A stretch of 64,000 nucleotides of DNA from Eubacteriales bacterium (GTDB lineage: Bacteria; Bacillota; Clostridia; Oscillospirales; CAG-272). The notes under the pieces are model-generated. The model worked only from the letters and a program-made list of their open reading frames with translations, ran no database searches and was not told the DNA's origin. The stretch is from assembly GCA_045636605.1 (NCBI GenBank), contig JAZTXV010000017.1, positions 62,614 through 126,613 of the forward strand. Direction: 5' to 3'. Of the stretch, positions 3,125 through 62,468 are shown one piece after another; within the stretch, counting starts at the first letter, position 1; the number at the start of each line of letters is the position of its first letter. The translations under genes and the position numbers were made by a program.

Positions 3125-5494
3125 TTATTGATACGGGAAGAAATCTCCGTTTTCAAAGAAGCCCTTGACGGTTGTGTCATTGGCTGTCAGAGTTGCCTCT
3201 CTTGCGTTGCCTGTTGATTGGAATACGCCCTTAATAATAGCGCCCGTATGCAAGGTAAGAGTTCCCTCGCCGTTCCAATCTCCAAGAGCCCAGCGTCCCT
3301 CATAGATATCGCCGTTTGTGTATCTCATCACACCTTGACCGTGGGGGAAATTACGCTTATTTCTTTCTCCCTCGTATGAGCCGCTCATGGTTGTATCGAA
3401 CATAACGTAGGTGCTATCGGAGTCGAGTGCGCCACCGTCATTCTCGGAGTCACACACGGACTCATCCTCGCTTGGAGAGTATGTCGGGCAATCGTCACTT
3501 TCAAATGAATCGTCACCCGTCAACGAATCGCAAGATGGGTAATCGTCATTTGATGAGCATATCGGAGCATCCTCGTCGGGAATTTCGATGCCGTCAAGGC
3601 AGTCGAGGTCGTCAAGTGTCGGAATAGTGCGCTTTCTTGGAAGCGGAGCCCTGTTTATCGGCTCGTCACCCTCGATAAATTCACCGTCAACGAGCTGTCC
3701 GTAGCGAACCCTTTCCATATTTTCAAAGAATGTAACGTTAGAGGAATTGTTGCACGATTGCCAGAAAGCAGAGAAGATTGAGCCGTTAACCCAAAGCACA
3801 CCCTTGCCGTGCCAAGCATCGCCTCTCCATTCGCCACGGTAAGCCTTGCCGTTTGCATAAATCATAATGCCCTTGCCGTGTCTGCTTCCGTTTTTCCAGT
3901 TGCCCGAATATACACTGCCGCTTGCGTATGTCATAATACCCATGCCGTGTAGCTCAAGGCCGCAAATTTCACCCTTATATGTGTCGCCCGAGGGATATTT
4001 TACTCTGCCGATAGCCTTGTCATCCTCAATGAAATTTCCCAAAATAACCGTGCCGTCGTGCAAGGTATATCTGCCTATTCCAAAGGGTACATCATCCTTC
4101 CAAGCTCCCTCGTAAACGTCGCCGTCGGAGCTTATATATCTGCCGTAACCGTTAAAGCAGCCGTCAACGAAATCGCCCTCGTATGACGAGCCGTCGCTCC
4201 AAACGTATTTGCCACTACCGTTCGGCTTTCCATTAACGGAATCGCCCTCGTAGTAGCTGCCATCGTCCCAAACGTATTTGACCTTATCGTTCGGCTCATG
4301 GTCAGACTCCTCATAGTCAGACTCCTCGTAGTCAGACTCCTCATAGTCAGACTCCTCGTAGTCGGAATCCTCGTAGTCGGAATCCTCGTAGTCAAGGTCG
4401 TCATAGCCGTCATTTTCGTCGTCAATGTCACGCTTGCTGTCGTCGCCGTCAAGCTCGCACGCATCAACCTCATCGTCCTCGTCTGCGACAGGTGGCTCCT
4501 GCGGATCTGTGGAGTCCGTTGTGTTACAGCAGCCGCAAACTGTTTCTCCGTTAAGAATTTTATTTAAATTAGATGCAATTATCTCGGCATCACGGGAAAA
4601 ATCTGTCGAATTTGAAGGGTTTACCTCGGCTTCCTCGTCAATTTCCTCAATAAGATTGCCGTTTTCCCAAATGCCTCTTTTTACCTCGCCGCTTGCGAGA
4701 AAAAGCTCGCCGTAGCCGTTAAAGTCGCCGTCAACGAACTCACCGACATATGTGCCGGCAGAGGAAACGCTTCTGCCGGTGCCGTTTGCATAGCCGTTTC
4801 TGAATTCACCCTCGTAGTATGAGCCGTCGTCGAAGGTGATTCGTCCAACGCCGTTGGGAATTCCGCCTTCGTCAGAGTCGCCCTCATATGTAAAGCTTGC
4901 CCTTTCGTGCTCACTTAAGCTATCGCTTGAGTCAATAGACGGACATCCAAAGGCACGAATATCATTGTCAGCACGGCTTGAGCGCTTGTCAAACGGCTCA
5001 CGACAGTGGTCGCCCTCAACGAACTCACCGTTCTTGAAGGTACCCTCAAACCTTTCACCGCTTGGCAAAATAAGTCTGCCTATTCCGTGATATACGCCGC
5101 AGCTGAAGCCACCCTCGTAGGTTGTACCGTCAGGCAAGGAAAGCCTGCCCATTCCGTCAAAGCTTCCTTGAACGAATGCGCCCTCGTAGGCTGTGCCGTC
5201 ACCGAGAGTGAGCCTGCCCATTCCGTCGTAAAGACCGTTAAGGAAGCTTCCCTCATAGTTCACACCCGTTTCAAGAGAGAGCTTGCCAAGACCGTTGAAA
5301 TCGCCGTTGACAAAGTTACCCTCATAGGCAGCGCCCCTGGAAATCGCCAAAACGCCATAGCCGTTAAACTCACCGTTCACAAAGCCACCCTCGTAAACGA
5401 GCTCATTAGGCTTTGTAAAAACGCCTCTGCCCTCGGGAAGATTGTTTTGGTTTACGGCTCCGTCGTAGATTCCGTTTTTAAAATCAAATTTCAT
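3125..5494 (-). CDS. MORN-repeat protein with an acidic DYE(D/E)S linker
   Basis: About 20 YEGxxxxGxxxGxG MORN units in two blocks. I prefer the start at M23 of the track ORF (ATG at 5494, AAAGGA RBS). No signal peptide. Confidence 0.85.
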   Translation of the reverse strand: MKFDFKNGIYDGAVNQNNLPEGRGVFTKPNELVYEGGFVNGEFNGYGVLAISRGAAYEGNFVNGDFNGLGKLSLETGVNYEGSFLNGLYDGMGRLTLGDGTAYEGAFVQGSFDGMGRLSLPDGTTYEGGFSCGVYHGIGRLILPSGERFEGTFKNGEFVEGDHCREPFDKRSSRADNDIRAFGCPSIDSSDSLSEHERASFTYEGDSDEGGIPNGVGRITFDDGSYYEGEFRNGYANGTGRSVSSAGTYVGEFVDGDFNGYGELFLASGEVKRGIWENGNLIEEIDEEAEVNPSNSTDFSRDAEIIASNLNKILNGETVCGCCNTTDSTDPQEPPVADEDDEVDACELDGDDSKRDIDDENDGYDDLDYEDSDYEDSDYEESDYEESDYEESDYEESDHEPNDKVKYVWDDGSYYEGDSVNGKPNGSGKYVWSDGSSYEGDFVDGCFNGYGRYISSDGDVYEGAWKDDVPFGIGRYTLHDGTVILGNFIEDDKAIGRVKYPSGDTYKGEICGLELHGMGIMTYASGSVYSGNWKNGSRHGKGIMIYANGKAYRGEWRGDAWHGKGVLWVNGSIFSAFWQSCNNSSNVTFFENMERVRYGQLVDGEFIEGDEPINRAPLPRKRTIPTLDDLDCLDGIEIPDEDAPICSSNDDYPSCDSLTGDDSFESDDCPTYSPSEDESVCDSENDGGALDSDSTYVMFDTTMSGSYEGERNKRNFPHGQGVMRYTNGDIYEGRWALGDWNGEGTLTLHTGAIIKGVFQSTGNAREATLTANDTTVKGFFENGDFFPYQ
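4301..4405 (-). repeat. In-frame 15-bp tandem repeat, 7 units
   Basis: gtcagactcctc(a/g)ta x4, gtcggaatcctcgta x2 and one degenerate unit. Encodes DYEDSDYEDSDYEESDYEESDYEESDYEESD. Confidence 0.9.
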
Positions 5495-5577
5495 ATATTG
5501 TCCTTTCGTGTGGGGCTGTATCACGGAATACGCCGTGACAGAGCCCCCTGTAAAAAGCAAAATTAAGTTAGCGGCAA

Positions 5578-7779
5578 TTAGTCCTCAGATGGATAGAAGG
5601 CGCCGTAGCGCATAGAGCCACGAACAGATGTGCCACCGTCAATGAGCTCAAGAGAATCGCTATCCTTGAAATCTCTGAACATTCCCGTGTAGGTATGACC
5701 GTCACTTGATATGTAAACGCCCTTTCCAAGCCACTTGCCGTATGACCAGAAGCCGTTATATATATCTCCGCTTGCATAGCGCATCAAGCCCTTGCCGTGA
5801 GGCTGTCCGTAGTTGTTTCTTGCGCCCTCGTATGTGTCCTCGGCGGGTGGGGGCAGAGAGGAGTCGGGAATTTCAATTTCTGCATCATCGTCGGATTCCT
5901 CGTCGCCAAAGCCGCTAAGAATACCGAAGCCGTCATCGTCGTCATCATCGTCATCGGAGAAGAAGCTCATAAAGCCCTTGCCCGATTCCTCCTCGTTACG
6001 CTTAACGGGAGCCTCTGATGAAGCTGCGGTGCCTGATGTGAATACATCGTCATTTGTCTCAACGGGAGTGTTGACGGGCTCGTTCATCACAACATCGTCA
6101 ACGGGTGTGTCGAAAATTTCATCGTCGATCTCCTCGACGGAAATTACGGGAGCCTTTGCGCTCGGAGTCGGACGTGACGGTGCGTGGATTGCACCAGGTC
6201 TTGACATAGGAGTCTTTGTTCCCGTGCTGCCCGCAGGTCTTGCAGGTCTTGTGGGTGCCGCAGGCCTTGTAGGAGCGGTCGGAGCAGGCCTTGAAGAAGC
6301 GCTCGGCCTTGAAACAGAGGGCCTTGCAAATGATGAACCCGAGCTCGAAGCGGATGCTGCGGAGCTTCCTTGGAACTCGCCCTCTATCCATTCGCCCTCT
6401 TGAACCGTACCATCGGCAGATGTTAGCTTGCCGAAGCCGTGATAGTTGTCATTTTTGAACTCGCCCTCGTAAACGTCGCCGTCTGCATATACACGTATGC
6501 CGTGACCGTTGAAGTCGCCGTCAACGAATTCGCCCTCGTAGTAGCTGTTTTCGCTCCATACGTACTTACCGAAGCCCTGACGCTTGCCCTCAAAGTATTC
6601 ACCCTCGTAGTAGGAGCCGTCCTCAACCCATACGTATTTACCCTTACCGTGCTGCTTATCGCTTTTCCATTCGCCTATGTAGTAATTTCCGCTTTCCCAA
6701 ACACGCTTACCGTGACCGTTGAAATCGCCGTCAACGAAATCACCCTCGTAGTAGCTGTTCTCGTTCCAAACGTATTTACCCTTACCGCAACGCTTGCCCT
6801 CAACGTAGTCGCCCTCGTAGTAGGAGCCGTCGTCAGCCCAGGTATATCTACCTCTGCCGTGCTGGTTGTCGTCCTTCCATTCGCCGACATAGTAGTTTCC
6901 GCTTTCCCAGACACGCTTACCGAAGCCGTTGAAGTTGCCGTCGGCAAACTCGCCCTCATAGTAGCTGTGCTCATTCCAAGCATAGCAGCCGTGTCCTGTA
7001 CGCTGTCCGTCAACGAAATCACCGTCGTAATAGGAGCCGTCCTCCCAGGTATATGTTCCGCTTCCGTGACGCTTATCATTACGCCACTCACCCTCATAGT
7101 GTGAGCCATCGGGCCACGAATAAACACCGAAGCCCTCGAAGTTACCGTCAACAAACTCACCCTCATATCGCTTTCCGTCGCTCCATTTAAGCACGCCGTA
7201 GCCCTCGGGCCTTCCGTTAGAGCCAACAGGGCCGGTATATGTAGCGCCCGCAAAGGAAATTGTTCTTGACGAGCCTCTTGATGAGTGTCTTGGCGGAGTT
7301 CTCTTTGTCGGTGGCGGAGCAGTCCTTGACGGAACCTTCGCAAAGGAATTTCCGCTCATATCAAATGAGTCCGTTGAGCTGAAATCCTGTGTCCAGTCGT
7401 AGCCGCCATCCTCGGGGACTTCAATCTCGGGCTCGACCAATTCGTCATCGTCGTCATCGTCGTCAAAGTTTTCGACGGTAGTGCCGAAATCGTTCATCCA
7501 ATCGTCGCTTGCGGAGCTGAAATCGTTTGTCCAATCATAGCTCGAGCTTGACGTGCGTGACGAGCCGAACGTATCGTTTGTCCATTCGCCCTCCTGCTCG
7601 GTGCCGTTTGCGAATTTCATTTTGCCGTGGCCGTGTCTTTTTCCGTTTTGCCACTCGCCCTCGTAAACGTCGCCGTTATTCCAATAAAATGTTCCCTTGC
7701 CGTGAGGCTCATCGGCGTCATTAAACTCGCCCATATAGAAGCCGTCGTCGGTTGTGATAGATTTGTTATTCGTTTCCAT
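5578..7779 (-). CDS. MORN-repeat protein with Pro/Ser/Ala-rich and poly-Asp linkers
   Basis: Many YEGE(F/W)xxGxxxGxG units. AAGGGGA RBS. Starts 20 nt after the upstream paralog's stop. Confidence 0.85.
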   Translation of the reverse strand: METNNKSITTDDGFYMGEFNDADEPHGKGTFYWNNGDVYEGEWQNGKRHGHGKMKFANGTEQEGEWTNDTFGSSRTSSSSYDWTNDFSSASDDWMNDFGTTVENFDDDDDDDELVEPEIEVPEDGGYDWTQDFSSTDSFDMSGNSFAKVPSRTAPPPTKRTPPRHSSRGSSRTISFAGATYTGPVGSNGRPEGYGVLKWSDGKRYEGEFVDGNFEGFGVYSWPDGSHYEGEWRNDKRHGSGTYTWEDGSYYDGDFVDGQRTGHGCYAWNEHSYYEGEFADGNFNGFGKRVWESGNYYVGEWKDDNQHGRGRYTWADDGSYYEGDYVEGKRCGKGKYVWNENSYYEGDFVDGDFNGHGKRVWESGNYYIGEWKSDKQHGKGKYVWVEDGSYYEGEYFEGKRQGFGKYVWSENSYYEGEFVDGDFNGHGIRVYADGDVYEGEFKNDNYHGFGKLTSADGTVQEGEWIEGEFQGSSAASASSSGSSFARPSVSRPSASSRPAPTAPTRPAAPTRPARPAGSTGTKTPMSRPGAIHAPSRPTPSAKAPVISVEEIDDEIFDTPVDDVVMNEPVNTPVETNDDVFTSGTAASSEAPVKRNEEESGKGFMSFFSDDDDDDDDGFGILSGFGDEESDDDAEIEIPDSSLPPPAEDTYEGARNNYGQPHGKGLMRYASGDIYNGFWSYGKWLGKGVYISSDGHTYTGMFRDFKDSDSLELIDGGTSVRGSMRYGAFYPSED

Positions 7780-7799
7780 AGCTTTCCCCTTAAATTATC

Positions 7800-9230
7800 T
7801 TAATCGGCACGAAAATCGCCGTCAGTCATCGTTCCGTGTATAGCTCTTCCGTTCAAGAAAAGAGTTACGTTCAAGCTGCGCTTTGTTGACGAGAAGTAGC
7901 CCTTATATACCTTTCCATCGGGCAACGTATATGTGCCCTGCTTGTACCATTCGCCGTAAGCCCAGCCACCGTCATAGGTTGAGCCGTCTGCGTAGAACAT
8001 CTTTCCTCTGCCGTGTGGCTGTCCCTTGAAGTTCTTTTCACCGTCGTAAACGTCGCTTTGCTCGTCGGGAGTAAACTCAAAGCCCGTCATAGAGCCGTCT
8101 GTTTCCCTTCCGCCGATAGTCTTTATAACCATCTCGGACTCTCCGCAGTCGCTCCAATAGCTTGAATAATAGGTAACGCTCTCGCCGTTCTCGGAGGTTG
8201 TATATGTACCCGAGCCACGCCAAGCGCCGTCCTCCCATTCGCCATCAAAGAAATTGCCGTCAGCATATGTGTATTTACCCTTGCCGAAGAAGGTATTTTC
8301 ACGGAAATCACCCTCGTAAACGTCACCGTTTTCCATAGTGAGTGTTCCGTGACCGTTGATTTGGTCGTTTTCGTATTCGCCATCGTAGCTTGAGCCGTCG
8401 GAGAAATTACAGTGCGCCTCTCCTGAGAGCTGACCGTCAACGAATGTGCCCTCGAAGACGTCACCCGAATCCCAGGTCTTTTTACCACGGCCGTTTATAG
8501 CGCCGTTTTCCCAATCACCCTCATAGGTGCATTCGTATTCGTCCCAGCGAATAGAGCCGAAGCCGTGCGGAAGTCCGTCTGAGTTTATCTGTCCCGCATA
8601 GATTCCGCCGTCATATTCGTAATCCTCAACGTCGGAGAGGGAGTCCTCGGAAATCTCCTCAAATTCGTCCTCGTCGTCAACCAAATCGGTTGCCGCATCA
8701 AGAATTTCGTTCTCAAGGTCGGTAAAGTCAAGGCCGTCATCCTCGCCCTCGTCATTATCGGTAACCTCGTTGTACGTGTCGTTGCCCATAGGGAAGTCGT
8801 CAACGTCTGTCGGATTTTCCGCCATTGTTGTTCCGAAATCGTTTGTCCAATCGTAGCCGCTGTCGCCGGAGTCATCGCAATCGTAATCATCGCTTCCGCT
8901 TATCGTGCTATCGTCGCCCTCGTCGTCCTCGTCGTCAAAATTTTCAACGGTCGTGCCGAAATCGTTCATCCAATCGTCGCTCGTGGAGCTGAAATCGCTT
9001 GACCAATCGTTTGAGTTGAACGAGTCGTATGACCATTCGCCCTCCTGCTCGGTGCCGTTTGCGAATTTCATTTTTCCGTGGCCGTGTCTTTTTCCGATTT
9101 GCCACTCGCCCTCATAAACGTCTCCGTTGTTCCAATAAAATGTTCCTGTGCCGTGCGGCTCGTTTGCGTCGTTAAAGTCACCCATGTAGAAGCCGTCGTC
9201 AGTTGTGATGGATTTGTTGCTGCTTGCCAT
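7800..9230 (-). CDS. MORN-repeat protein (paralog, first gene of a three-gene set)
   Basis: MORN units. The N-terminal ~100 aa are nearly identical to the 5578-7779 product. GGGGGA RBS. Confidence 0.85.
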   Translation of the reverse strand: MASSNKSITTDDGFYMGDFNDANEPHGTGTFYWNNGDVYEGEWQIGKRHGHGKMKFANGTEQEGEWSYDSFNSNDWSSDFSSTSDDWMNDFGTTVENFDDEDDEGDDSTISGSDDYDCDDSGDSGYDWTNDFGTTMAENPTDVDDFPMGNDTYNEVTDNDEGEDDGLDFTDLENEILDAATDLVDDEDEFEEISEDSLSDVEDYEYDGGIYAGQINSDGLPHGFGSIRWDEYECTYEGDWENGAINGRGKKTWDSGDVFEGTFVDGQLSGEAHCNFSDGSSYDGEYENDQINGHGTLTMENGDVYEGDFRENTFFGKGKYTYADGNFFDGEWEDGAWRGSGTYTTSENGESVTYYSSYWSDCGESEMVIKTIGGRETDGSMTGFEFTPDEQSDVYDGEKNFKGQPHGRGKMFYADGSTYDGGWAYGEWYKQGTYTLPDGKVYKGYFSSTKRSLNVTLFLNGRAIHGTMTDGDFRAD

Positions 9231-12803: not shown

Positions 12804-13997
12804 ATGAGTCGTATGGTCGGTACAGTATCAAGAGGTATAAGAGCCCCCATTATTCGTCAGGGCGACGACCTTGTTGAGATTGTTACAAATTCAATTCTTG
12901 AAGCATCAAGAGAGGATGGCTTTGAAATCCGCAACCGTGACATCGTTGCTATGACGGAGGCTATCGTTGCAAGAGCGCAGGGCAACTACGCAAGCGTTGA
13001 CGATATCGCAGCCGACGTTAAGGCTAAGCTCGGTGGAGAAACAATAGGCGTTATTCTCCCGATTTTGAGCCGTAACCGCTTTGCTATCTGTCTTCGTGGT
13101 ATCGCAAAGGGAGCAAAGAAGGTAGTTCTTCAGCTTTCATATCCATCTGACGAGGTGGGAAATCACCTTATCAGTCTTGATATGCTTGATGAAAAGGGAA
13201 TCAATCCCTACACCGACGTTTTGGATCTCAAAAAATACAGAGAGCTTTTTGGCTACGAAAAGCACCCATTCACAGGTATTGACTACGTTGAATACTACGA
13301 GAAGCTTATCACCGAAAGCGGCGCAGAGGCCGAAATCATTTTTGCAAACGATCCCCGTGCAATTCTTAAGTACACAAAGAACGTTCTCGCATGTGACATT
13401 CACTCACGCTTCCGCACAAAGCGCTTACTTAAGAGCGCAGGCGCCGAGGTTGTGTTCGGTCTTGACGAGATTCTCAATACAAGCATAAACGGTAGCGGAT
13501 ATAACGAAAATTACGGTCTTCTTGGCTCAAATAAGGCAACCGAGAACCAAGTAAAGCTCTTCCCAAGAGATTGCCAAGCACTCGTTGAGGCAATTCAGGC
13601 AAGGCTTCTTGACGCAACGGGCAAGCTCGTTGAGGTTATGGTTTACGGTGATGGTGCGTTCAAGGACCCTGTTGGAAAGATTTGGGAGCTTGCAGACCCT
13701 ATCGTTTCCCCCGCATACACCGCAGGTCTTGAGGGAACTCCGAACGAGCTTAAGCTCAAGTATCTTGCAGACAACGATTTTGCAGAGCTTTCGGGCGAGG
13801 CGGTCAAGGAAGCGATAAAGAGAGAAATCGTTAAAAAGGACGGCAACCTTGTTGGAAATATGGCATCTGAGGGCACAACGCCAAGACGCCTAACCGACCT
13901 TATCGGCTCACTCTGTGACCTGACATCAGGCTCAGGCGACAAGGGCACACCTATCGTGTTTATTCAGGGCTATTTCGACAACTACACCACAGAATAA
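12804..13997 (+). CDS. CofE-like (F420-0:gamma-glutamyl ligase family) domain protein
   Basis: The N-terminal pattern ...GIRAPIIRQGDDLVEIV...DIVAMTEAIVARAQGN resembles the CofE/PF01996 fold. Recognised from memory only. Confidence 0.5.
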   Translation: MSRMVGTVSRGIRAPIIRQGDDLVEIVTNSILEASREDGFEIRNRDIVAMTEAIVARAQGNYASVDDIAADVKAKLGGETIGVILPILSRNRFAICLRGIAKGAKKVVLQLSYPSDEVGNHLISLDMLDEKGINPYTDVLDLKKYRELFGYEKHPFTGIDYVEYYEKLITESGAEAEIIFANDPRAILKYTKNVLACDIHSRFRTKRLLKSAGAEVVFGLDEILNTSINGSGYNENYGLLGSNKATENQVKLFPRDCQALVEAIQARLLDATGKLVEVMVYGDGAFKDPVGKIWELADPIVSPAYTAGLEGTPNELKLKYLADNDFAELSGEAVKEAIKREIVKKDGNLVGNMASEGTTPRRLTDLIGSLCDLTSGSGDKGTPIVFIQGYFDNYTTE

Positions 13998-14040
13998 CCC
14001 GACAAGCGTCGAGAGGCGAATTCCTCGTTTATAAAAAAGT

Positions 14041-14079
14041 AACTGCTTCTGCATAGCACGAAGCAGTTTTCTTTTTATT
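14041..14079 (+). terminator. Rho-independent terminator
   Basis: aactgcttc...gaagcagtt stem followed by a T-rich run. Confidence 0.7.
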
Positions 14080-14161
14080 TATCGAGAGCCTCGAGATTGA
14101 AATTTTGCGTTAGCTTGGCGTAATTTGAAAATTAGCCACGAAAAATTTTGTTTGTATGTAC

Positions 14162-18910: not shown

Positions 18911-19075
18911 TCGCACCCTGTCGCTTCGAACCTCCTTCAAAAACGCAACACGTTTTTGAATAGAGTTCGGATGCGAGCAAAAGGCGTTGAGAATTTATTC
19001 TCATAAGCCGTGCGAAGCACATTACCGTCAGGTAATGCATCTCCTATAAAGCACGCAGTGCTTTCGGGGCGCGCA
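18911..19075 (+). repeat. tRNA-Arg-linked structured repeat, unit A (candidate structured ncRNA or att-type relic)
   Basis: Shares conserved blocks with unit B and has four hairpins. Ends in atctcc...cggggcgcgca, resembling the tRNA-Arg 3' end. Confidence 0.6.
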
Positions 19076-19103
19076 GGACTTGCTCCTGTCTTTTTTGTTT
19101 ATC

Positions 19104-19265
19104 TCGCCCTTGGTTCGATTCGACTCTCCTTCAAGGCTTTGCCTTGAATAGAGTTCGCAAGTCCGCCGAAAGCCGTTGTCTGCTTGCAAGCATAAGGCTC
19201 GGCGTGACTCGTTGCCACAGGCAACGCATCTCCTATACAGTGCATCGCACTGTCGGGGCGCGCCA
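19104..19265 (+). repeat. tRNA-Arg-linked structured repeat, unit B
   Basis: Same architecture as unit A with compensatory hairpin changes. Its last 12 nt, cggggcgcgcca, are identical to the tRNA-Arg 3' end including CCA. Confidence 0.6.
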
Positions 19266-19270
19266 AGAGA

Positions 19271-24515: not shown

Positions 24516-24582
24516 TTATTCAAATGTTTATTTGAGTTTGTTTTTCAAAAAATGCACCCAATCGGGTGTCTTTTCTGTTTAT

Positions 24583-24640
24583 CACGCCCTTGGTTCGATT
24601 CGACTCTCCTTCAAAGCACACGGTGCTTTCGGGGCGCACC
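24583..24640 (+). repeat. tRNA-Arg-linked structured repeat, mini unit C (internally deleted)
   Basis: Its 5' 32 nt are identical to unit B. They are joined directly to a terminal hairpin aaagcac acg gtgcttt and cggggcgcacc. Confidence 0.6.
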
Positions 24641-54692: not shown

Positions 54693-55634
54693 ATGATAGA
54701 AATCAAAAATCTTGTAAAAAGATATGGAAATCATTTTGCTCTTGACGATATCTCATTTACTGTAAATGATGGAGAAATCGTCGGCTTCCTCGGCCCTAAC
54801 GGTGCGGGAAAGTCCACGACAATGAATATAATCACGGGTTATCTTTCGTCCACATCGGGTACTGTCATTGTTGACGGCCACGATATCTTAGAGGAATCGC
54901 TTGAGGCGAAAAGGCTAATCGGATTTTTGCCCGAGCAGCCGCCGCTTTACATAGATATGACGGTTTGGGAATACCTGTGCTTTGTATATGATTTAAAGGG
55001 CTGTGAGTTTAACAAGACCAAGCATCTTGAGGAAATTTGCGAGCTTGTTAAGATTTCGGATGTAAAGCAACGCCTTATTCGCAATCTTTCAAAGGGATAT
55101 AAGCAAAGAGTGGGTATTGCAAGCGCGCTCGTTGGAAATCCAAAGATAATTATCTTTGACGAGCCGACGGTTGGACTTGATCCAAAGCAAATAATAGATA
55201 TAAGAAGCCTTATTCGTAACCTCGGAAGAAACCACACGGTTATTCTCTCCACGCACATAATGCAGGAGGTTCAGGCGGTTTGTGACAGAATTATTGTCAT
55301 CAACGAGGGTAAAATTATTGCCGACGAGAAGACGGCAAGCTTCAACAACGCAGTCAACCAAAACACAAGATACCGTGTAAAGATTTCGGGACCTCAAAAG
55401 GAGGTTTTGCGTCACCTTCGCTCGCTTGTCGGAATTGTCAGCTGTGAGCTTCACGGCGAAAGAGAGGGCGATGCCTTCACATACGATATTGAAAGCTCTC
55501 CAAGCATTGACATAAGAAAGAGCCTGTTCCGCGCTCTCGCCGACAAGGGCTGGCCGATGCTCGGTATGGAGCCGATAGGAATGGAGCTTGAGGACATATT
55601 CCTGAAGCTCATAAATAAAGGAGGTAGAAGATGA
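54693..55634 (+). CDS. ABC transporter ATP-binding protein (GldA-like)
   Basis: Walker A GPNGAGKST, signature LSKGYKQR and Walker B IIIFDEP. Confidence 0.85.
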   Translation: MIEIKNLVKRYGNHFALDDISFTVNDGEIVGFLGPNGAGKSTTMNIITGYLSSTSGTVIVDGHDILEESLEAKRLIGFLPEQPPLYIDMTVWEYLCFVYDLKGCEFNKTKHLEEICELVKISDVKQRLIRNLSKGYKQRVGIASALVGNPKIIIFDEPTVGLDPKQIIDIRSLIRNLGRNHTVILSTHIMQEVQAVCDRIIVINEGKIIADEKTASFNNAVNQNTRYRVKISGPQKEVLRHLRSLVGIVSCELHGEREGDAFTYDIESSPSIDIRKSLFRALADKGWPMLGMEPIGMELEDIFLKLINKGGRR

Positions 55635-56365
55635 TAGCGATTTTCAAGCGTGAAATGCGCTCATACTTTACAACCTCTACGGGCTATGTGTTCTTGGCGG
55701 TTGCGCTTGCTCTTTCGGGCATAGTGTTCGGCGCAAGCACTCTTTTAATGGGCTCCGGCGACACAGGTCCGTACTTTTCGCTTATGTTGTTCGTGCTTAT
55801 GATAATTCTTCCCATCCTCACAATGAAGACCTTCAGCGAGGAGAGAAGAACGAAAACGGAGCAGCTTCTGCTGACTGCGCCGATAACAACCACGCAAATG
55901 GTAATGGGAAAATTCCTCTCCTGCATTTGTATGTTTCTTGTTTTTCTTGTGCTCAGCTGTGTTAGCTTTATTCCGCTTTTTGCATATGCAAAGACAAACA
56001 CCGATGAAATAACAGAGCTTGCGCCCAATATAGCGCTTATCGTAGGAAATATGATAGCGATTATTCTTGTCGGAATGTGCTTTATTGCGATAGGTATATT
56101 CGTTTCCTCGCTTACCGAAAACCAGTTCGCAGCAGTCGTAATCACAATAGCAATTCTTCTGTTTTTGTTGCTTGTCGGACTCTTTAACGGCTTTATTGAA
56201 TCCTATGCGATAAGAACTGTTTTGAGCTGGCTTTCAATTTATTCGAGATTTACAAGCTTCACCTACGGAATATTTGACATAGGCGCGCTTATTTATTATC
56301 TGTCGATAAGCGGAGTGTTCCTGTTCTTGTCGGTGCGTGTCTTTGAGTCACGTAAATATCGTTAA
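55631..56365 (+). CDS. ABC-2 family permease (GldF-like)
   Basis: Six hydrophobic segments. 4-nt overlap with the ATPase gene. Confidence 0.75.
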   Translation: MIAIFKREMRSYFTTSTGYVFLAVALALSGIVFGASTLLMGSGDTGPYFSLMLFVLMIILPILTMKTFSEERRTKTEQLLLTAPITTTQMVMGKFLSCICMFLVFLVLSCVSFIPLFAYAKTNTDEITELAPNIALIVGNMIAIILVGMCFIAIGIFVSSLTENQFAAVVITIAILLFLLLVGLFNGFIESYAIRTVLSWLSIYSRFTSFTYGIFDIGALIYYLSISGVFLFLSVRVFESRKYR

Positions 56366-56377
56366 GGGGGTGCGACA

Positions 56378-57979
56378 ATGAAAAACGGATTTTTAAAATC
56401 ATTTGCCGACTCTCGAAAGATAAAGTATTCCTCTCTCAGTGTTGCCCTAAGTGCGATAATAATTGCGATTGTTGTAATACTGAACTCAATCACTGCCGTT
56501 CTGGCTGATAAATTCGGCTGGTACATTGATATGACGGACGATCAGGTTTTCACGCTCTCCGACGATGCGAAAAAGCTCCTCGAGGAGCTTAACGATGACG
56601 TTCAGCTGGAGATAGTTTTCCCGGCGAAAGAGGACGAAATTGAGAAAAATTACGCAAACTCCGTGACCTCGGGCTCAATAGGCTACATTCACTCAACCGC
56701 AGAGCAGATTGAGGAGGTATGCGACAATGTAACCGTTTCCTACCACGACGTAGATAAGGATTATCTGTTCTACAAGGATTTGGGAGTTCTTAACAAGGCG
56801 GGAGATAATAACATTCTCATTCTCCGCCGTGATGCGAAGGGCAACTACGTTGAGGGAGATTTCCGTGTGTATCCGATAAACTACTTCTATGTGGGCGACG
56901 AGGAGGGCAACCTCTACGGCTACAACGGAGAGCTTGTGTTTGTGTCGGCAATGCTTGCAATGGCGCAGGATACGGTTCCCACCGTTTATTTCACGATAGG
57001 ACACGGCGAGAGCTCGTTCAACGCAGATGTGATAATAGACTTTGAAAACATCAACGCAGAGTACATCAAGGGCAACATCGACGTCGGCGCGCTTGAGATG
57101 ATGAGAGTGTTCTGCGACAGTGGCTTCACGGTGAAGCCTCTTGATATCACCACCTCGGAAATTCCGAAGGATGCGCGCATAATCGTCATAAATCAGCCAC
57201 AGGGTGACCTTGATGATGCGGAGCTTTACAAATTAGATATGTATCTTAAGGACGAGGGCACGGTGTTTATGTTCACCCCTCACGACAAGGAGCTTCCTAA
57301 TTTGTATGCCACACTTGAGGCAAGCTATGGCGTTAAGGTAAACGTAAGCGCAACACCCGTCGAGGACTCCTCGACCGAGTTTGGAATAACGGGCGCAACG
57401 GGCAAGTACTATACACTTTTGGCAAATGTGTCAAAGGATGACGGAGGCTTCGCTTCAAATCAGTATTTCAGCGCTCTTAATTCATATACATCTCTTAGAG
57501 CCCGCTTCTACAATTCGGCGACCTTGACCATAAATCCCGAATATATGAACAAGAACGGACACCCCGAGGGAAGCTACTTCAAATACACATACCCGCTTCT
57601 TGAAACGACCTCAAACGCAACCTTTGACGGCGAAAAGAAGGTACATCACCTTATGAGCGTTACGTCGATTTGGGAATGGGATTATGAAAATCAGTCAAGC
57701 AAGTATTCGTATCTTGTGGTATGCCCGTCAAGCGGATTTGCATCGCCCGAGTTCTTGACGCTGTCAAGCGCACCGAATAAGGACATGGTCTTGTCCTTGA
57801 TTCAGACCACCTCGAGCATCCAAACTCCTGTCAATATGGGCTATAAGACCTTTATGAATTACAGACTTGATATAACCGACCGTCAGGCACAGGGCACAAC
57901 TATAATGCTTGCAACGATATTGCCTGCCGCTGTGGTTATATGCGGAATAGTTATTATCGTAAGGAGAAAGCACAGATAA
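56378..57979 (+). CDS. GldG-like ABC transporter auxiliary protein
   Basis: N- and C-terminal TM anchors flank a large extracytoplasmic domain. Its position after GldA/F-like genes is typical. Confidence 0.65.
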   Translation: MKNGFLKSFADSRKIKYSSLSVALSAIIIAIVVILNSITAVLADKFGWYIDMTDDQVFTLSDDAKKLLEELNDDVQLEIVFPAKEDEIEKNYANSVTSGSIGYIHSTAEQIEEVCDNVTVSYHDVDKDYLFYKDLGVLNKAGDNNILILRRDAKGNYVEGDFRVYPINYFYVGDEEGNLYGYNGELVFVSAMLAMAQDTVPTVYFTIGHGESSFNADVIIDFENINAEYIKGNIDVGALEMMRVFCDSGFTVKPLDITTSEIPKDARIIVINQPQGDLDDAELYKLDMYLKDEGTVFMFTPHDKELPNLYATLEASYGVKVNVSATPVEDSSTEFGITGATGKYYTLLANVSKDDGGFASNQYFSALNSYTSLRARFYNSATLTINPEYMNKNGHPEGSYFKYTYPLLETTSNATFDGEKKVHHLMSVTSIWEWDYENQSSKYSYLVVCPSSGFASPEFLTLSSAPNKDMVLSLIQTTSSIQTPVNMGYKTFMNYRLDITDRQAQGTTIMLATILPAAVVICGIVIIVRRKHR

Positions 57980-59667
57980 TGAAAATGAAGAAAAAGAAAA
58001 TAACCATAGCGGTGCTTTTCGGCGTGCTTGTGGCTTTGATTCTTTTGTACTTCCTCGTTATAGCGCCGCTTATGGAAAATCAGGGCACACAAACCATAGA
58101 GCCCGCAACTCCGCAAGAGGGAGAGGGCTTGTATTACGGCTCTCTTACTATGTTTCCCGTAATCAAGGATGATGATGTCATTTCGATAACGATAACCAAC
58201 TCTCACGGAACGTTTTCCTTTGAAAACAAAATAAGCGAAAGCTCCGGAAATTATGCGCTCAGGCTTGCGGAATACCCAAGGCTTACTCTCAACAGTAAGA
58301 TCCTTACCGAGCTCAGAGTTTATGCTCTGAACACTCAATGCGTAAACCCCGAGCCCCTAAGAGATTGCTCCCCCGAGATGATGGCGAAATACGGCGTCAC
58401 AAAGGACACCTGCACAGCCACCTATACAGTCAAATTCAAGGAAAACGGAGAGGAGAAATCCCATACCGTGTATATAGGTGACAAAACCCTTGCCGCAAGC
58501 GGCTCATACTTTGCAACCGTTGAGGGACGTGATGTAATTTACGAGGTCGATTCGGGCATTGAGGGCGGAATTTTGTTGGCTCAAACAGATTTTGTCGATA
58601 CTCTTATTGCCTCACAATACACAAGCACAGAGGTCGTTTACGAGGTAAACAAAATTCTCATAGGAAATTCGGGCACCTCGACTCCGTTCGTCGGAATAGG
58701 TGCGAACAGAATTGAAAATGCGGACACCGTAATGGTAAAATACACGGTACAGTACCCGACGAATGCGAAAAACGTCAGCGCAAGCACCGATTACATATCG
58801 AAGGCGCTAAATGCTCTGCTCGTTAATTTTACGGGAAGCAGAGTGGTGCAAATTGATCCCGATGAGCAAACCCGTGCAAAATACGGGCTTGACGCATCAA
58901 GCACGAAAAAAATCGTCAGCGTAGGCACCTTTGATGACAAGGAATTTGTCTTTACGCTGAGCCAAAAAATGAAAAATGAGAATGGCGTAGATTGCTATTA
59001 TCTCTATGCAGGCCCCGCAACCGACAAGGATGTGGCGCTAATAATCGAGGTAACGGCATTGGGCTACGAGTTCTTAGAGGAAGAAAACGCAATAAAATGG
59101 GTTGCTACTAACTCATTTGAGGCGGGCTTCACAAAGTATATCTACGAAAACGCCGAGGTTGGCGAAAGCGGAGTTGCAGATATCACAATATCGGCAAACA
59201 CCAATGCAATAAAGGACTTTAAGGACAAATTCATCCTTGAGCACTCACCCCATCCCACAGACGCTTCAAAGGGCGACATTCTTACCGTTACCTCGGAAAG
59301 CGGAAGATACACCTTTGTAGATTTGACTAACGTGGAGGATTCCTCGTATAAAAATGAATTTAGAAACTTTTATGCTATAATGGTAAACTATCCTATGCCA
59401 AACCGCTTCAACACCATGACGGCAGCTGAGCGAGAGGCGAAAAAGACGCAGGAAAATCTCATTCTGAGCATAAGAGTTACGTTGAATGACGGCACAAAAA
59501 TGGGCTATGACTATTATAAGCTTGATGCCGCAAACGTTATGTGCGAGTTCTTTGACGATAAAAACCCCGAGCCAACGGTGGTATTTGACACAACGATTCA
59601 GCACGTCGATATCTTTGCAACGGCGCTAAGTCAGCTCGTAAGCGGAGAGCACGTTGAAAAGCACTAA
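57979..59667 (+). CDS. DUF4340-like membrane-anchored protein
   Basis: N-terminal TM helix. TAATG coupling to the GldG-like gene. I prefer the start at MKMKKKK (57979). Confidence 0.5.
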   Translation: MKMKKKKITIAVLFGVLVALILLYFLVIAPLMENQGTQTIEPATPQEGEGLYYGSLTMFPVIKDDDVISITITNSHGTFSFENKISESSGNYALRLAEYPRLTLNSKILTELRVYALNTQCVNPEPLRDCSPEMMAKYGVTKDTCTATYTVKFKENGEEKSHTVYIGDKTLAASGSYFATVEGRDVIYEVDSGIEGGILLAQTDFVDTLIASQYTSTEVVYEVNKILIGNSGTSTPFVGIGANRIENADTVMVKYTVQYPTNAKNVSASTDYISKALNALLVNFTGSRVVQIDPDEQTRAKYGLDASSTKKIVSVGTFDDKEFVFTLSQKMKNENGVDCYYLYAGPATDKDVALIIEVTALGYEFLEEENAIKWVATNSFEAGFTKYIYENAEVGESGVADITISANTNAIKDFKDKFILEHSPHPTDASKGDILTVTSESGRYTFVDLTNVEDSSYKNEFRNFYAIMVNYPMPNRFNTMTAAEREAKKTQENLILSIRVTLNDGTKMGYDYYKLDAANVMCEFFDDKNPEPTVVFDTTIQHVDIFATALSQLVSGEHVEKH

Positions 59668-60012
59668 TGTGCTACGCACAATGCGGAGTGAGGAATGCGG
59701 AATGCGGAATGCGGAATGAAATTGCTTCGTGGGTGATTTTTAAATCAAGGCTAAACGAAAGCGGGAATTGCCTCAGGCGCTTGCCTGCGGAGTGCGGAAT
59801 GCGGAATGAAATTGCTTCGTGGGTGATTTTTAAATCAAGGCTAAACGAAAGCGGAGATTGCCTCGGACGCTTGTCCGTGCGGAATGCGGAGTGCTACGCA
59901 CAATGCGGAATGCGGAATGAGGAGTGCGGAGTGAGGAATGAAATTGCTTCGTGGGTGATTTTTAAATCAAGGCTAAACGAAAGCGGAGATTGCCTCGGAT
60001 GCTTATCCGTGC
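59668..60012 (+). repeat. Array of three ~80-nt structured repeats interleaved with a GGAATGC heptamer microsatellite
   Basis: Cores start at 59713, 59803 and 59935 (ggaatgaaattgcttcgtgggtgatttttaaatcaaggctaaacgaaagcgg...). Heptamers run at 59692-59712. gtgctacgcacaatgcgga is duplicated at 59669 and 59891. Confidence 0.9.
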
Positions 60013-60128
60013 GTGTCGAGGCTCTCGACTGCCTCGGACTCAGAAAAATAATTTGATTTCTTTTTGTAAGCTTTTTCTTCCAAAGAAAAAGCAAGGAAAT
60101 ATATGCGTAATGAAAGGACACAACAGCT

Positions 60129-62468
60129 ATGGAATACAAGTACGGCTATTTCAATGAAGCGGGAGACGAATTTGTAATAACCTCTCCCAAAACACCAAGA
60201 CCATTCGACAACTTTCTTTTTAACGACTCGTGCTATGCAAACGTGCATCAGACGGGTATTGGATGCTTCGATTACCAAATCGACGGTAAGGAGGGTATTC
60301 AGCTTTACACGGGCGTAGGAAGAATTTGTGACTACGACGTTTTCGGAAAGGACCACCTATACAACAGACTTATATTCATTCGTGACAACGAAACGGGCGA
60401 ATTTTGGACTCTCAACTGGGAGCCCGTGTGCCATCCGTATCAGGAATATAAGTGTGTGCAAGGACTCGGTTACACAGACATAACCAACAAAACAAACGAC
60501 CTTGTGTCTAAAATGCGTATATTTGTACCTATCGGCACAGACGCAGTTGAGATGTGGAAGCTCTCATTCAAGAACGAAACGGGCAAGAAGAAATCATATT
60601 CAATCTTTACATATAGCCAAATACAGTTCCGCTTCAAGTGGGGCTTTGACAGCTACGGCGATACAATGTACCGCGCAACTCGCTTTGACAAGGAAAGAAA
60701 CACCTTCTATATGACAAAGCACCCGTTCATTAAGCCACATAACTACCTTACTGCATTTATGACCGCAGATAAGGAAATCGTTGGCAGTGACGGATGTCAG
60801 AACGTGTTCGTTGGCGAATACGGAACAATAGGCGCACCCGAGGTTGTAAGAGAGGGTGCTTGCAAGAACTCGATAGGCTCTGCAAACGCAACAATATGCA
60901 CGCTTCAGTTCAATATCGAGCTTGATGCGGGAGAAAGCGACGAGATTTCTCTTATGCTTGGCGTAGGTAGCGAGGAAAACGATTCAATCGCCCTTGCAAG
61001 CAAGTACCTTGCAAATCAAGACAAGTATTTCGAGGAAATGAAATCGCACTACAAGGCGATGTATAACAAAAACCACATTACCACAACCGACGAGCATTTT
61101 GACCGTCTTATCAACTACTGGGGCAAGCACGCAACGCACTTTGGCGCAACCTGGTGCCGTTGGGGCTATAATGGCTACCGTGATATCGTTCAACACGGCT
61201 TCGGTGTTGTTTCCTTCAAGACGGAGAGAACAAAGCAGATTTTGAAGGAGGCAATTCAAAATCAGTACGCAAGCGGAATGGCAGTTCGTGGTTGGAATCC
61301 CGTTGATACAAAGGCGTACTCCGACTCTGCGCTTTGGCTTGAATTTACACTCACCGCTTACTTAAGAGAAAGCGGAGATATCGACTTTTTGAACGAGGTT
61401 TACCCCTTCAGAGATGAGGGCGAGGCAACTGTTCTCGGTCATATGGACAGAGCCCTTGACTTCCTTGAGTCGAATAAGGGTGAGCACGACCTTCTTCTTA
61501 TCAAATTCGGCGACTGGAATGACTCTCTTACCGGCGTAGGTAAGGAGGGTAGAGGTGAGAGCGTATGGCTCTCCATCGCATATGCACAGGCGCTTCTCGA
61601 AATGGCAGAGCTTGCTCGTTTTATGGGCGATGAGGCTAAGGAAAAGAACTACCTCTCTCGCCGTGAGGCAATAATGAAGGCGATCAATGAGAATGCTTGG
61701 GACGGCGAATGGTACAGACGCTGCTATACCGATAACGGCTCACCTCTTGGAAGCGTACAGAACAAGTATGCAAAGATGTTTATGGAGCCACAGTGCTGGT
61801 CACTCATTTCGGGCGTTGCAAGCGAGGAAAGAGCAAACACCATAATCAGAGCTATGGACGAGAGAATGCTCACTCCTGTTGGATATCTCCTTCTTACCCC
61901 ATCCTATAAGGAGTTCGATGCTACAATCGGACGTATCTCCTCAATGGAGCCGGGCATTTGCGAGAACGGAACAATTTATTCACATACAAACATCTGGATG
62001 ATTTTGGGACTCCTTAAATACGGCAAGGCAGACCTTGCATACGAGCTGTTCAAGAAGATAGCTCCCGGCTATATCGTAGGCGACAACACCGAAATCAAGA
62101 ACAAGTGCTTGCCATATATGTTCTCGAACTGCTACTTTGGCCCCGAGCATAAGAATAGCGCATTCCAGATGGAATATAGCTGGATTACAGGCTCTGTTGC
62201 TTGGTACACAAACACAATGGAGAACTATCTCGTTGGCGCAAGAGCAACCTATGAGGGACTCGTAATCGAGCCACATCTCCCCTTTGAGAGCGCAAAAATG
62301 AAGCGTCTTTTCCGTGGCGCAGAGTACGAAATCACCGTATCGAACCCACAAAAGAAGGCAAAGGACTACACTCTTGAAATCACAGTTGACGGCAAAGCAA
62401 TCGACGGCAACATTGTTCCCGCCTTCGCAGACGGCAAAACTCATACGGTTTGCGTAATCGTAAAATAA
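60129..62468 (+). CDS. GH94-like glycoside phosphorylase (cellobiose/chitobiose phosphorylase family)
   Basis: The N-terminus YGYFNEAGDEFVITSPKTPRPFDNFL is collinear with cellobiose phosphorylases. Catalytic-region FGDWNDSL motif. 779 aa. Confidence 0.75.
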   Translation: MEYKYGYFNEAGDEFVITSPKTPRPFDNFLFNDSCYANVHQTGIGCFDYQIDGKEGIQLYTGVGRICDYDVFGKDHLYNRLIFIRDNETGEFWTLNWEPVCHPYQEYKCVQGLGYTDITNKTNDLVSKMRIFVPIGTDAVEMWKLSFKNETGKKKSYSIFTYSQIQFRFKWGFDSYGDTMYRATRFDKERNTFYMTKHPFIKPHNYLTAFMTADKEIVGSDGCQNVFVGEYGTIGAPEVVREGACKNSIGSANATICTLQFNIELDAGESDEISLMLGVGSEENDSIALASKYLANQDKYFEEMKSHYKAMYNKNHITTTDEHFDRLINYWGKHATHFGATWCRWGYNGYRDIVQHGFGVVSFKTERTKQILKEAIQNQYASGMAVRGWNPVDTKAYSDSALWLEFTLTAYLRESGDIDFLNEVYPFRDEGEATVLGHMDRALDFLESNKGEHDLLLIKFGDWNDSLTGVGKEGRGESVWLSIAYAQALLEMAELARFMGDEAKEKNYLSRREAIMKAINENAWDGEWYRRCYTDNGSPLGSVQNKYAKMFMEPQCWSLISGVASEERANTIIRAMDERMLTPVGYLLLTPSYKEFDATIGRISSMEPGICENGTIYSHTNIWMILGLLKYGKADLAYELFKKIAPGYIVGDNTEIKNKCLPYMFSNCYFGPEHKNSAFQMEYSWITGSVAWYTNTMENYLVGARATYEGLVIEPHLPFESAKMKRLFRGAEYEITVSNPQKKAKDYTLEITVDGKAIDGNIVPAFADGKTHTVCVIVK

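Follow-up and report, generated by a model that had tools for sequence, protein, structure and literature searches.

The 64-kb window analysed here (64,000 nucleotides of contig JAZTXV010000017.1 of an Eubacteriales bacterium) contains a four-gene unit coding for an ABC ATPase, an ABC-2 permease, an ABC_transp_aux (GldG-like) protein and a DUF4340 protein, followed after a gap by a GH94 phosphorylase gene. The DUF4340–GH94 gap measures 461 nt (59668-60128) and holds three tandem copies of a unit of ~84 nt (59713-59796, 59803-59886 and 59935-60018), which are interleaved with runs of the heptamer GGAATGC. A preliminary description of this gap had reported three near-identical cores separated by heptamer runs, including three perfect GGAATGC copies at 59692-59712, and our analysis bears this out: a 39-nt core, GCTTCGTGGGTGATTTTTAAATCAAGGCTAAACGAAAGC, is identical in all copies and is found three times and no more in the window (59724, 59814 and 59946, always on the + strand), with matches in 0/100 dinucleotide-preserving shuffles. 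Tandem Repeats Finder described the region as a repeat with a period of 90 nt (2.2 copies, 91% matches) together with 7-nt arrays at 59680-59718, 59786-59808 and 59902-59940. A search for two-unit heptamers with at most two mismatches returned 10 matches, all in 59685-59927, against 0.67 expected by chance. The copy number is as assembled in a short-read metagenome-assembled genome (MAG); the unique hairpin sequence carried by each copy weighs against an assembly duplication.

All elements of the array lie on the + strand. Immediately 3′ of the DUF4340 stop codon stands a hairpin, TGTGC-tac-GCACA (59668-59680), whose counterpart at the related locus L001 is TGCAC-ttt-GTGCA; it corresponds to the first copy of gtgctacgcacaatgcgga, which is present twice, at 59669 and 59891, just as had been noted before. 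The first heptamer array (59680-59718; 5.6 units of the AATGCGG or GGAATGC type, the three perfect copies among them) begins 13 nt past the stop codon and leads into unit copy 1 (92.1 bits), in which the 5′ motif AAATTGCTTCGTGGG, an inner hairpin TGATT-ttta-AATCA, ACGAAAGCGG, ATTGCCTC and the terminal hairpin CAGGC-gctt-GCCTG (59774) follow one another. A second heptamer array of 3.3 units (59786-59808) separates units 1 and 2, and unit copy 2 (92.4 bits) ends in CGGAC-gctt-GTCCG (59864). The interval 59877-59940 comprises two heptamers, the second gtgctacgcacaatgcgga copy (59891-59909) and the third heptamer array (59902-59940, 5.6 units), after which unit copy 3 (92.4 bits) ends in CGGAT-gctt-ATCCG (59996). 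The repeats close with a hairpin GTCGAG-gct-CTCGAC and a partial repeat, gactgcctcggac (60015-60039). The three terminal hairpins lie where the preliminary description had placed them. It had described the terminal hairpin as differing between copies solely by compensatory changes; the copies as a whole differ by more than that. Copies 1 and 2 agree throughout 59 nt, after which 8/26 positions differ (Fisher p=3e-5), and their differences outside the stems comprise gggaat/ggagat immediately 5′ of the hairpin and, on its 3′ side, an indel of 2 nt. The blocks are mosaic, in that the 5′ gtgctacgcaca hairpin is common to blocks 1 and 3 and the 3′ part to units 2 and 3. The differences among the window copies are transitions throughout.

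Protein-guided searches revealed a matching operon in about nine related ruminant-gut Clostridia, whose DUF4340 proteins are 50-67% identical to that of the window, and the clade DNA compared amounts to 146 kb (the window and ~82 kb from relatives). GH94 follows DUF4340 in every locus reaching far enough downstream, and the gap between the two genes ranges from overlapping genes (L052) through 20 nt (L002) up to 465 nt (L044). Exact protein look-ups of the window's DUF4340, GH94 and 129-aa products (the last being the translation of an open frame across the array) found no match; a shorter DUF4340 on record, P0001, is 100% identical to that of the window. A single sense unit occupies the gap in L046 and L049, a sense unit and a partial copy that in L050, and in L044 one diverged sense unit is accompanied by ~17-21 heptamers and by a second kind of hairpin module common to L001. 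The gap in L040-L043 contains three heptamers and one inverted unit. In L001 and L047 there are heptamers and other hairpins, and the unit is reduced to its first ten bases (an aaattgcttc stub); L045 has neither heptamers nor unit, and L002 and L052 lack both while keeping the gene order. Two metagenome contigs, L048 (43 nt past the DUF4340 stop) and L051 (~89 nt past it), end inside or just before the repeat-rich gap, a pattern that fits breaks in the assembly due to repeats or to heterogeneous length. A hairpin module, CGAGGCTCTCG (complement CCGAGAGCCTCGG), recurs at 14082-14094 and 60015-60029 of the window and at L040:5260-5273, L044:5186-5198 and L045:5184-5196; in several species it adjoins a unit or stands directly 3′ of the DUF4340 stop codon, and it seems to make up a third module in the mosaic.

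A comparison of two relatives reveals how rapidly the element turns over. Between L046 and L049 the DUF4340 proteins are 93% identical and the flanking coding DNA is 93-98% identical, whereas the gap is 72% identical overall; its edges are identical, and the divergence is confined to the unit interior (~70% identical), where the terminal stem has been swapped between CGGAC and CAGGC. Since these same two stems occur both among the window copies and in distant lineages, the stem variants are probably a property of the family that was moved about by recombination among copies, and not the product of repeated independent compensatory mutation.

As the preliminary description had suggested, the core was sought throughout the window and its relatives, and beyond the gaps of the relatives the repeat was found at a second locus of the window. 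A one-mismatch search with the conserved 5′ motif ATTGCTTCGTG pointed to 14057-14067 (- strand), which lies within a diverged, full-length fourth copy (13990-14075, - strand) between convergent CofE-like and BspA-LRR genes, in a context unrelated to GH94. This copy has a 5′ domain of the form AACTGCTTC-N10-GAAGCAGTT, with T-runs on both strands, and a terminal hairpin (T)CGAC-gctt-GTCG(G). A non-circular nhmmer profile, built from the seven GH94-gap units only, matched it at 14073-13999 (- strand) with E=4.8e-5 and matched the inverted L040 copy with E=6.8e-4. The covariance model R1, run over the clade DNA, returned its training copies (which match by construction) and the L050 partial copy, and nothing more. 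Because its 5′ motif pairs with the nearby GAAGCAGTT and T-runs are present on both strands, the 5′ domain of the 14-kb copy looks like a bidirectional intrinsic terminator serving the two convergent genes, which suggests that family members may be co-opted as terminators.

The units therefore belong to a dispersed family, and the features seen are those of an interspersed repeat: a short (<200 bp) similar sequence stands at two separate intergenic loci of the window; its presence, absence and orientation vary at orthologous sites; and its build is modular, with 1-3 units and 0 to ~20 heptamers per gap and with predicted stem-loops. Wider searches added no further members. A protein-guided scan of metagenome contigs found nothing, and a blastn search with two units against plasmids and phages gave no match. 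The gapped pattern TGCTTCGTG-N28-50-TTGCCTC was present in at least 120 stretches of viral contigs; a covariance-model screen of 80 viral loci gave one marginal match (19 bits, E=0.023), and we treated these matches as chance, the pattern being too loose.

What the copies share most clearly is the terminal hairpin. Aligned by homology over nine copies (the shorter CGAG-gta-CTCG of L044 was left out), it is 97.8% paired, both sides having changed in 3/5 pairs, and its covariation score of 0.71 compares with 0.25 in shuffles and was reached by 0/500 of them; in slid registers only 26-44% of positions pair. The stems observed include CAGGC, CGGAC, CGGAT, (T)CGAC and CTGAG, with Watson-Crick pairs in 43/45 cells, one G-T pair and one mismatch. 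The high pairing, the excess of covariation over shuffles and the poor pairing of slid registers together indicate that the terminal hairpin is maintained, and the covariation claimed for the window copies thus holds across species. Since stem variants probably move by recombination among copies, the covariation counts exceed the true number of independent changes; regardless of this, no fewer than five different stems with perfect pairing are left.

The other two structural elements fared less well. The arms of the proposed outer helix, gcttcgt/acgaaagc, are present, but pairing them requires a 1-nt bulge (acgaa-a-gc), and there is no compensatory change: the helix is 86% paired, without any double change, and 5/7 pairs depart through breaks only. 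This pairing reflects sequence conservation and is no evidence for a helix. The segment tgatttttaaatca, which had been presented as a perfect 14-bp palindrome, is not one, since it differs from its reverse complement, tgatttaaaaatca; two inverted arms of 6 nt enclose a TT, which corresponds to a stem of 5 bp closed by a loop of 4 nt. This inner hairpin reads TGATT/AATCA in the window, GAGTT/AACTC in L046 and GTAT/ATAC in L040, is interrupted by 15 inserted nt in L049 and cannot be made out in L050 or L044. Column-by-column alignment is impossible, and the evidence for it therefore stays suggestive.

Taken together, we hold with moderate confidence that the array is non-coding and consists of three tandem copies of a hairpin element of ~80 nt from a clade-specific family of small interspersed repeats. 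Its recurrence elsewhere in the genome and in relatives makes it look like an ordinary interspersed repeat rather than a switch dedicated to GH94. Among the roles suggested earlier, only a REP-like element cluster fits the recurrence, inversion, absence and fast turnover described above. The ancestral state would have been a single unit in the gap with GGAATGC-type runs on either side, and single units flanked by heptamers on both sides, as in L046 and L050, fit an origin by slippage. Misalignment of the flanking heptamer runs, by replication slippage or unequal recombination, could then have duplicated a unit-plus-heptamer block, and later exchange with other family copies may have produced the mosaic copies with their identical 5′ parts and differing terminal hairpins. 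In all likelihood the array is part of an ABC-DUF4340(-GH94) transcript, within it or at its 3′ end, because no terminator-like site was found in 59300-60400, the consensus promoter matches on the + strand are only two and weak (one of them, 60025-60052, within the last 100 nt before GH94), and distant relatives have a 20-nt gap or overlapping genes. Any effect would presumably be that of stem-loops between cistrons in general, which act on the processing, decay or coupling of mRNA, rather than sensing or gene-specific control.

Several observations weigh against this assignment to an interspersed family. Unit-bearing loci number just two in 64 kb; the exact 39-mer was not found in 185,579 species-representative genomes, nor a 24-mer in JGI metagenomes or IMG/VR. 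The window ORFs (open reading frames) of at least 150 aa include no transposase, integrase, RAYT or Y1 transposase gene that might mobilise the element, and the array has no terminal inverted repeats of at least 10 nt, which leaves the dispersal route without explanation. A miniature inverted-repeat transposable element (MITE) was rejected, as the sole inverted repeat of at least 10 nt in 59600-60140 is an unrelated hairpin at 60070-60092 and no duplication was seen at aligned unit boundaries. Unit and heptamers also persist at one gap in species sharing just 55-62% DUF4340 identity, and such persistence at a single gap could reflect a locus-specific function. Finally, the heptamers are wholly sense-strand, which a purely neutral model does not predict.

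This strand bias also speaks for an alternative in which the GGAAUGC runs form a multivalent mRNA platform for an RNA-binding protein of the CsrA, S1 or cold-shock type, with GGA exposed between hairpins, the units serving mainly as spacers, and the platform either tuning GH94 translation or stability or titrating the protein. The sense:antisense ratio of heptamers is 16:0 in the window, 17:0 in L044, 6:0 in L050 and 3:0 in L040, where the heptamers stay gene-sense although the unit is inverted, and GGA counts are 23:3 in the window and 27:2 in L044. Heptamers recur in the DUF4340–GH94 gap of six species, and the runs resemble heptameric intergenic repeats in being tandem, non-coding, strand-biased and placed near a stop codon between co-oriented ORFs. 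A similar idea has been proposed for intergenic TAACTGA heptamer runs (PMC4679880), and GGGNATC runs near stop codons between co-oriented ORFs are transcribed (PMC4692102). Against the platform, the GGA context UGCGGAAU is a poor fit to the CsrA consensus, no candidate binding protein was identified, and L045, L002 and L052 keep the gene order without heptamers. Moreover, the second heptamer array of L001 lies upstream of the predicted operon promoter and may escape transcription, so that transcription of every array is not assured. We consider this platform unlikely. Also quite unlikely is a broader version, in which the whole assembly, strand-specific (GGAAUGC)n runs alternating with small hairpins whose stems switch between a few perfectly paired variants through exchange among dispersed copies, would act as an RNA platform of a sort so far undescribed in Firmicutes; if it were true, an RNA-binding regulator recruited or titrated by the runs would set the ratio of GH94 to the upstream ABC exporter, and the trains of a constant linker plus a variable perfect hairpin at L001:2060-2600 would be further instances.

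That L001 region, in a goat-colon relative, is the gap upstream of the ABC/DUF4340 operon; it carries a heptamer run, GAGTGCGGAATGCGGAGTGCGGAATGAGGAATGA, a train of ~8 different perfect TG...CA hairpins with the 5-nt linkers TGAAT and ATTAA, and 4-5 units in which a constant TCGATAT is followed by a differing perfect hairpin each. The heptamer also occurs in unrelated DNA: (GGAATGC)3 or longer is present in 37 viral contigs (L003-L039, IMG/VR), mostly visibly G+C-rich, usually at gene boundaries, sometimes as inverted arrays forming long putative hairpins (L008, L025) and sometimes adjoining other heptamer or octamer runs (GGAGTTC, GGAGTGGT). This suggests a recurrent independent origin or a shared cause. 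A literature search for the heptamer dimer gave no paper that appeared related. A Sigma-54 promoter was discarded, as GG-N10-GC arises by construction from two heptamers and the TGGCAC-N5-TTGCA consensus fits poorly.

Dispersal, inversion and replacement of the units would be accounted for if the hairpins were single-strand DNA substrates of a trans-acting enzyme of the HUH/Y1 type, as REP elements are for RAYT. Both orientations are seen, replacement is fast and the copies are mosaic, and the stems are Watson-Crick paired in nearly every cell. Against it stand the absence of a REP GTAG-type 5′ motif beside the hairpins and that of a transposase or RAYT gene among the window ORFs of at least 150 aa. 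The all-transition changes, too, also fit compensatory evolution through G-U intermediates. An argument from missing G-U pairs for a DNA-level hairpin was rejected as circular, since the small-hairpin scan had accepted Watson-Crick pairs only; in the unbiased homologous stem set there is 1 G-U pair in 45 cells, a shortage that is not significant with nine sequences. On balance, an HUH/Y1 substrate seems rather improbable.

Still less probable is a dedicated leader RNA, that is, a tandem riboswitch or attenuator controlling GH94. The array does stand directly upstream of GH94 on the sense strand, its terminal hairpin covaries, and single sense copies occupy the gap of L044, L046, L049 and L050. 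However, nothing in the window or at four related loci reached the gathering thresholds of Rfam 15, and at a permissive threshold the sole match was CRISPR-DR16 (E=6.4), attributable to chance. The gap has neither a terminator-like site nor an antiterminator arrangement, and folding is unremarkable, with z-scores of -0.03 (+ strand) and -1.37 (- strand) for the whole region and -1.45 to +0.37 for single sense units (the terminator-like 14-kb copy reaches -3.37). Relatives carry the unit inverted (L040) or lack it (L001, L045, L002 and L052), and a further copy stands at an unrelated locus of convergent genes; the unit interior is far more divergent than the flanks between L046 and L049, and the outer helix shows no compensatory change. 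The earlier suggestion of a cis-regulatory RNA or operator array dedicated to the phosphorylase gene thus finds no backing in the Rfam, terminator, fold or dyad evidence.

As to the dyad, a palindromic transcription-factor operator was set aside because TGATTT-TT-AAATCA is replaced in L046, interrupted in L049 and absent from L050 and L044. A cre/CcpA, Fur or ArgR box at tgatttttaaatca fails at key positions, and the dyad is not kept in orthologues. The likeness to a LicT/BglG RAT antiterminator is limited to GGA-ATTG, the 3′ arm CAGGCAAAACC and a terminator both being missing. Plasmid-type iterons were rejected on account of the variable period and stems, and a type III antitoxin or CRISPR-like array for want of identical repeats of the right size and of associated genes.

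A contingency (phase-variable) locus, in which heptamer number would change spacing or frame upstream of GH94, had likewise been suggested, and we regard it as very unlikely. Repeats of 7 nt are prone to slippage, array length varies between species from 0 to ~20 units, and contigs L048 and L051 end inside or beside the repeats. Yet heptamer counts, and indeed whole gaps, are identical among the four independent samples L040-L043 and between the two samples L001 and L047 of two related species (relatives only), the arrays lie outside any conserved ORF and outside recognisable -35/-10 spacers, and the last heptamer precedes the ribosome-binding site of GH94 by ~190 nt.

The array also forms a 129-aa open frame (59667-60056, + strand) with a TAATG overlap of the DUF4340 stop, as had been pointed out. 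Its start codon overlaps the upstream stop and the copy spacings of 90 and 132 nt, both multiples of three, keep all three cores in the sole stop-free frame, an arrangement whose chance we estimate at ~1 in 9 to 27; since the frame is not conserved, this spacing is treated as fortuitous. GGAATGC is stop-free in all six frames and so lengthens ORFs automatically. A repeat protein translationally coupled to DUF4340 is the least probable reading of all, nearly negligible, because Pfam gives no match to the product and 5.8 billion proteins include no homologue of it, the matching frame contains stops in 6/6 other copies (L046, L049, L050, L044, L040 and the 14-kb copy), the orthologous gaps are all without a called gene, and the frame stops 72 nt short of the GH94 ATG. 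The frame is judged fortuitous and non-coding.

Several features beside the array deserve mention. In the window (54693-62468), as in all related loci, GH94 regularly takes fifth place, behind the genes of a GldA/F/G-like ABC system and DUF4340; the pairing of an exporter-like system with a cytoplasmic phosphorylase is unusual, and the GH94 protein is named by no NCBIfam model. The conserved hairpin at 60070-60092, GCTTTTTCTT-cca-AAGAAAAAGC, lies in the GH94-proximal region (60053-60128), 40-60 nt before the GH94 start, and is preceded by a competing TTTCTTTTT. It is found in L001, L040 and L044 (as CATACTTTTTCTT..AAGAAAAAGTATG in the latter two) and occurs twice in L045, whereas L046, L049 and L050 lack it; the true regulatory element or operator of GH94 may be this hairpin. 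The remaining window is ordinary chromosome, with glycoside hydrolases, rhamnose and cell-wall polysaccharide genes, MORN proteins, BspA-LRR surface proteins, EF-G and two tRNAs. Three adjacent MORN-repeat genes (3125-9230, - strand) have internal tandem repeats of 69 nt and 210 nt and a 15-nt repeat present six times (4301-4394). A second repeat family, at 18920-19270 and 24567-24640, adjoins tRNA-Ser and tRNA-Arg; its conserved flanks, gcatctcctata ... cggggcgcgc and tatc(t/a)cgcccttggttcgattcgactctccttca, the latter containing a tRNA T-arm-like GGTTCGATTC, enclose hairpins with differing perfect stems (AAGCAC/GTGCTT, CAGTGC/GCACTG), and it has no Rfam match at gathering score.

Recognition of the array as a family of interspersed repeats has practical consequences. 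Gene callers and readers may mistake such arrays for genes, as the 129-aa ORF illustrates, or for riboswitches, which recognition of the family would prevent in MAGs of ruminant-gut Clostridia, and the arrays probably break short-read assemblies, given that two related contigs end there. They offer a compact case of a hairpin that stays perfectly paired while its sequence swaps between copies, and, as strand-specific heptamer runs near stop codons in a Firmicute, they extend a class that still lacks an explanation. As to the biology of GH94, we found no evidence of the array as a substrate-sensing switch.

The family is new, and its kind is familiar from elements such as BOX, REP, MIRU, ERIC and NIME. 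REP sequences and BIMEs are short extragenic hairpins in mosaic clusters, which at intercistronic or 3′ sites can stabilise or attenuate mRNA. The array resembles them in combining short hairpins with other motifs in mosaic clusters, in its intercistronic or 3′ location and in occurring in both orientations. It differs in lacking the GTAG-type 5′ tetranucleotide, alternating inverted pairs and a RAYT among the window ORFs of at least 150 aa, and its stem sequence is variable where that of REP is conserved. MIRU elements, which Supply et al. in 1997 are said to have described, reportedly consist of units of 40-100 bp, often tandem and intercistronic in operons, with an ORF that overlaps the upstream stop and with frame-preserving lengths. 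Tandem intercistronic units, an open frame over the upstream stop codon and frame-preserving unit lengths are found here too; in contrast, the frame of the array is not conserved in other copies and falls short of the downstream start codon, the units have a covarying hairpin and heptamer separators, and the host belongs to an unrelated phylum, with no sequence similarity. An intercistronic coding repeat of the MIRU type was consequently rejected in spite of the TAATG overlap, given the early end of the frame and the stops in the other copies.

Tandem heptamers are likewise familiar, STRR heptameric repeats being found in cyanobacteria. Intergenic heptamer runs have been described as an unexplained class, with GGGNATC in Xanthomonas and Nostoc (PMC4692102) and TAACTGA in Beggiatoaceae, cyanobacteria and Bacteroidetes (PMC4679880). 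The runs studied here share with both the tandem, strand-specific 7-nt non-coding units, and only the last two bases distinguish GGAATGC from GGAATCG, the Xanthomonas unit in rotated form. They differ from GGGNATC in having GG instead of GGG tracts, with 5-nt loops, and in being interleaved with hairpin units; because of these GG tracts and loops, a stable G-quadruplex, a trait that defines the GGGNATC class only, is doubtful.

A further comparison is with the BOX elements of Streptococcus pneumoniae. These have the modular structure boxA-boxB(n)-boxC with a variable number of boxB, give rise to spurious ORFs and share transcripts with the genes beside them (Croucher et al. 2011, PMC3049150). 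For these, as for REP, BIME and ERIC, a generic effect of co-transcription with genes is known (PMC3049150), and that of the array is likely to be of this sort. The family described here has no sequence similarity to BOX, its blocks are separated by a 7-nt microsatellite without boxA or boxC bounds, and it counts two loci so far in the 64-kb window of an uncultured ruminant-gut Clostridia lineage, against ~100 loci for BOX. The two nevertheless resemble each other as small modular intergenic repeats in which one module varies in tandem number, with predicted stem-loops, with a location between both co-oriented and convergent genes and with ORFs that can be mistaken for genes.

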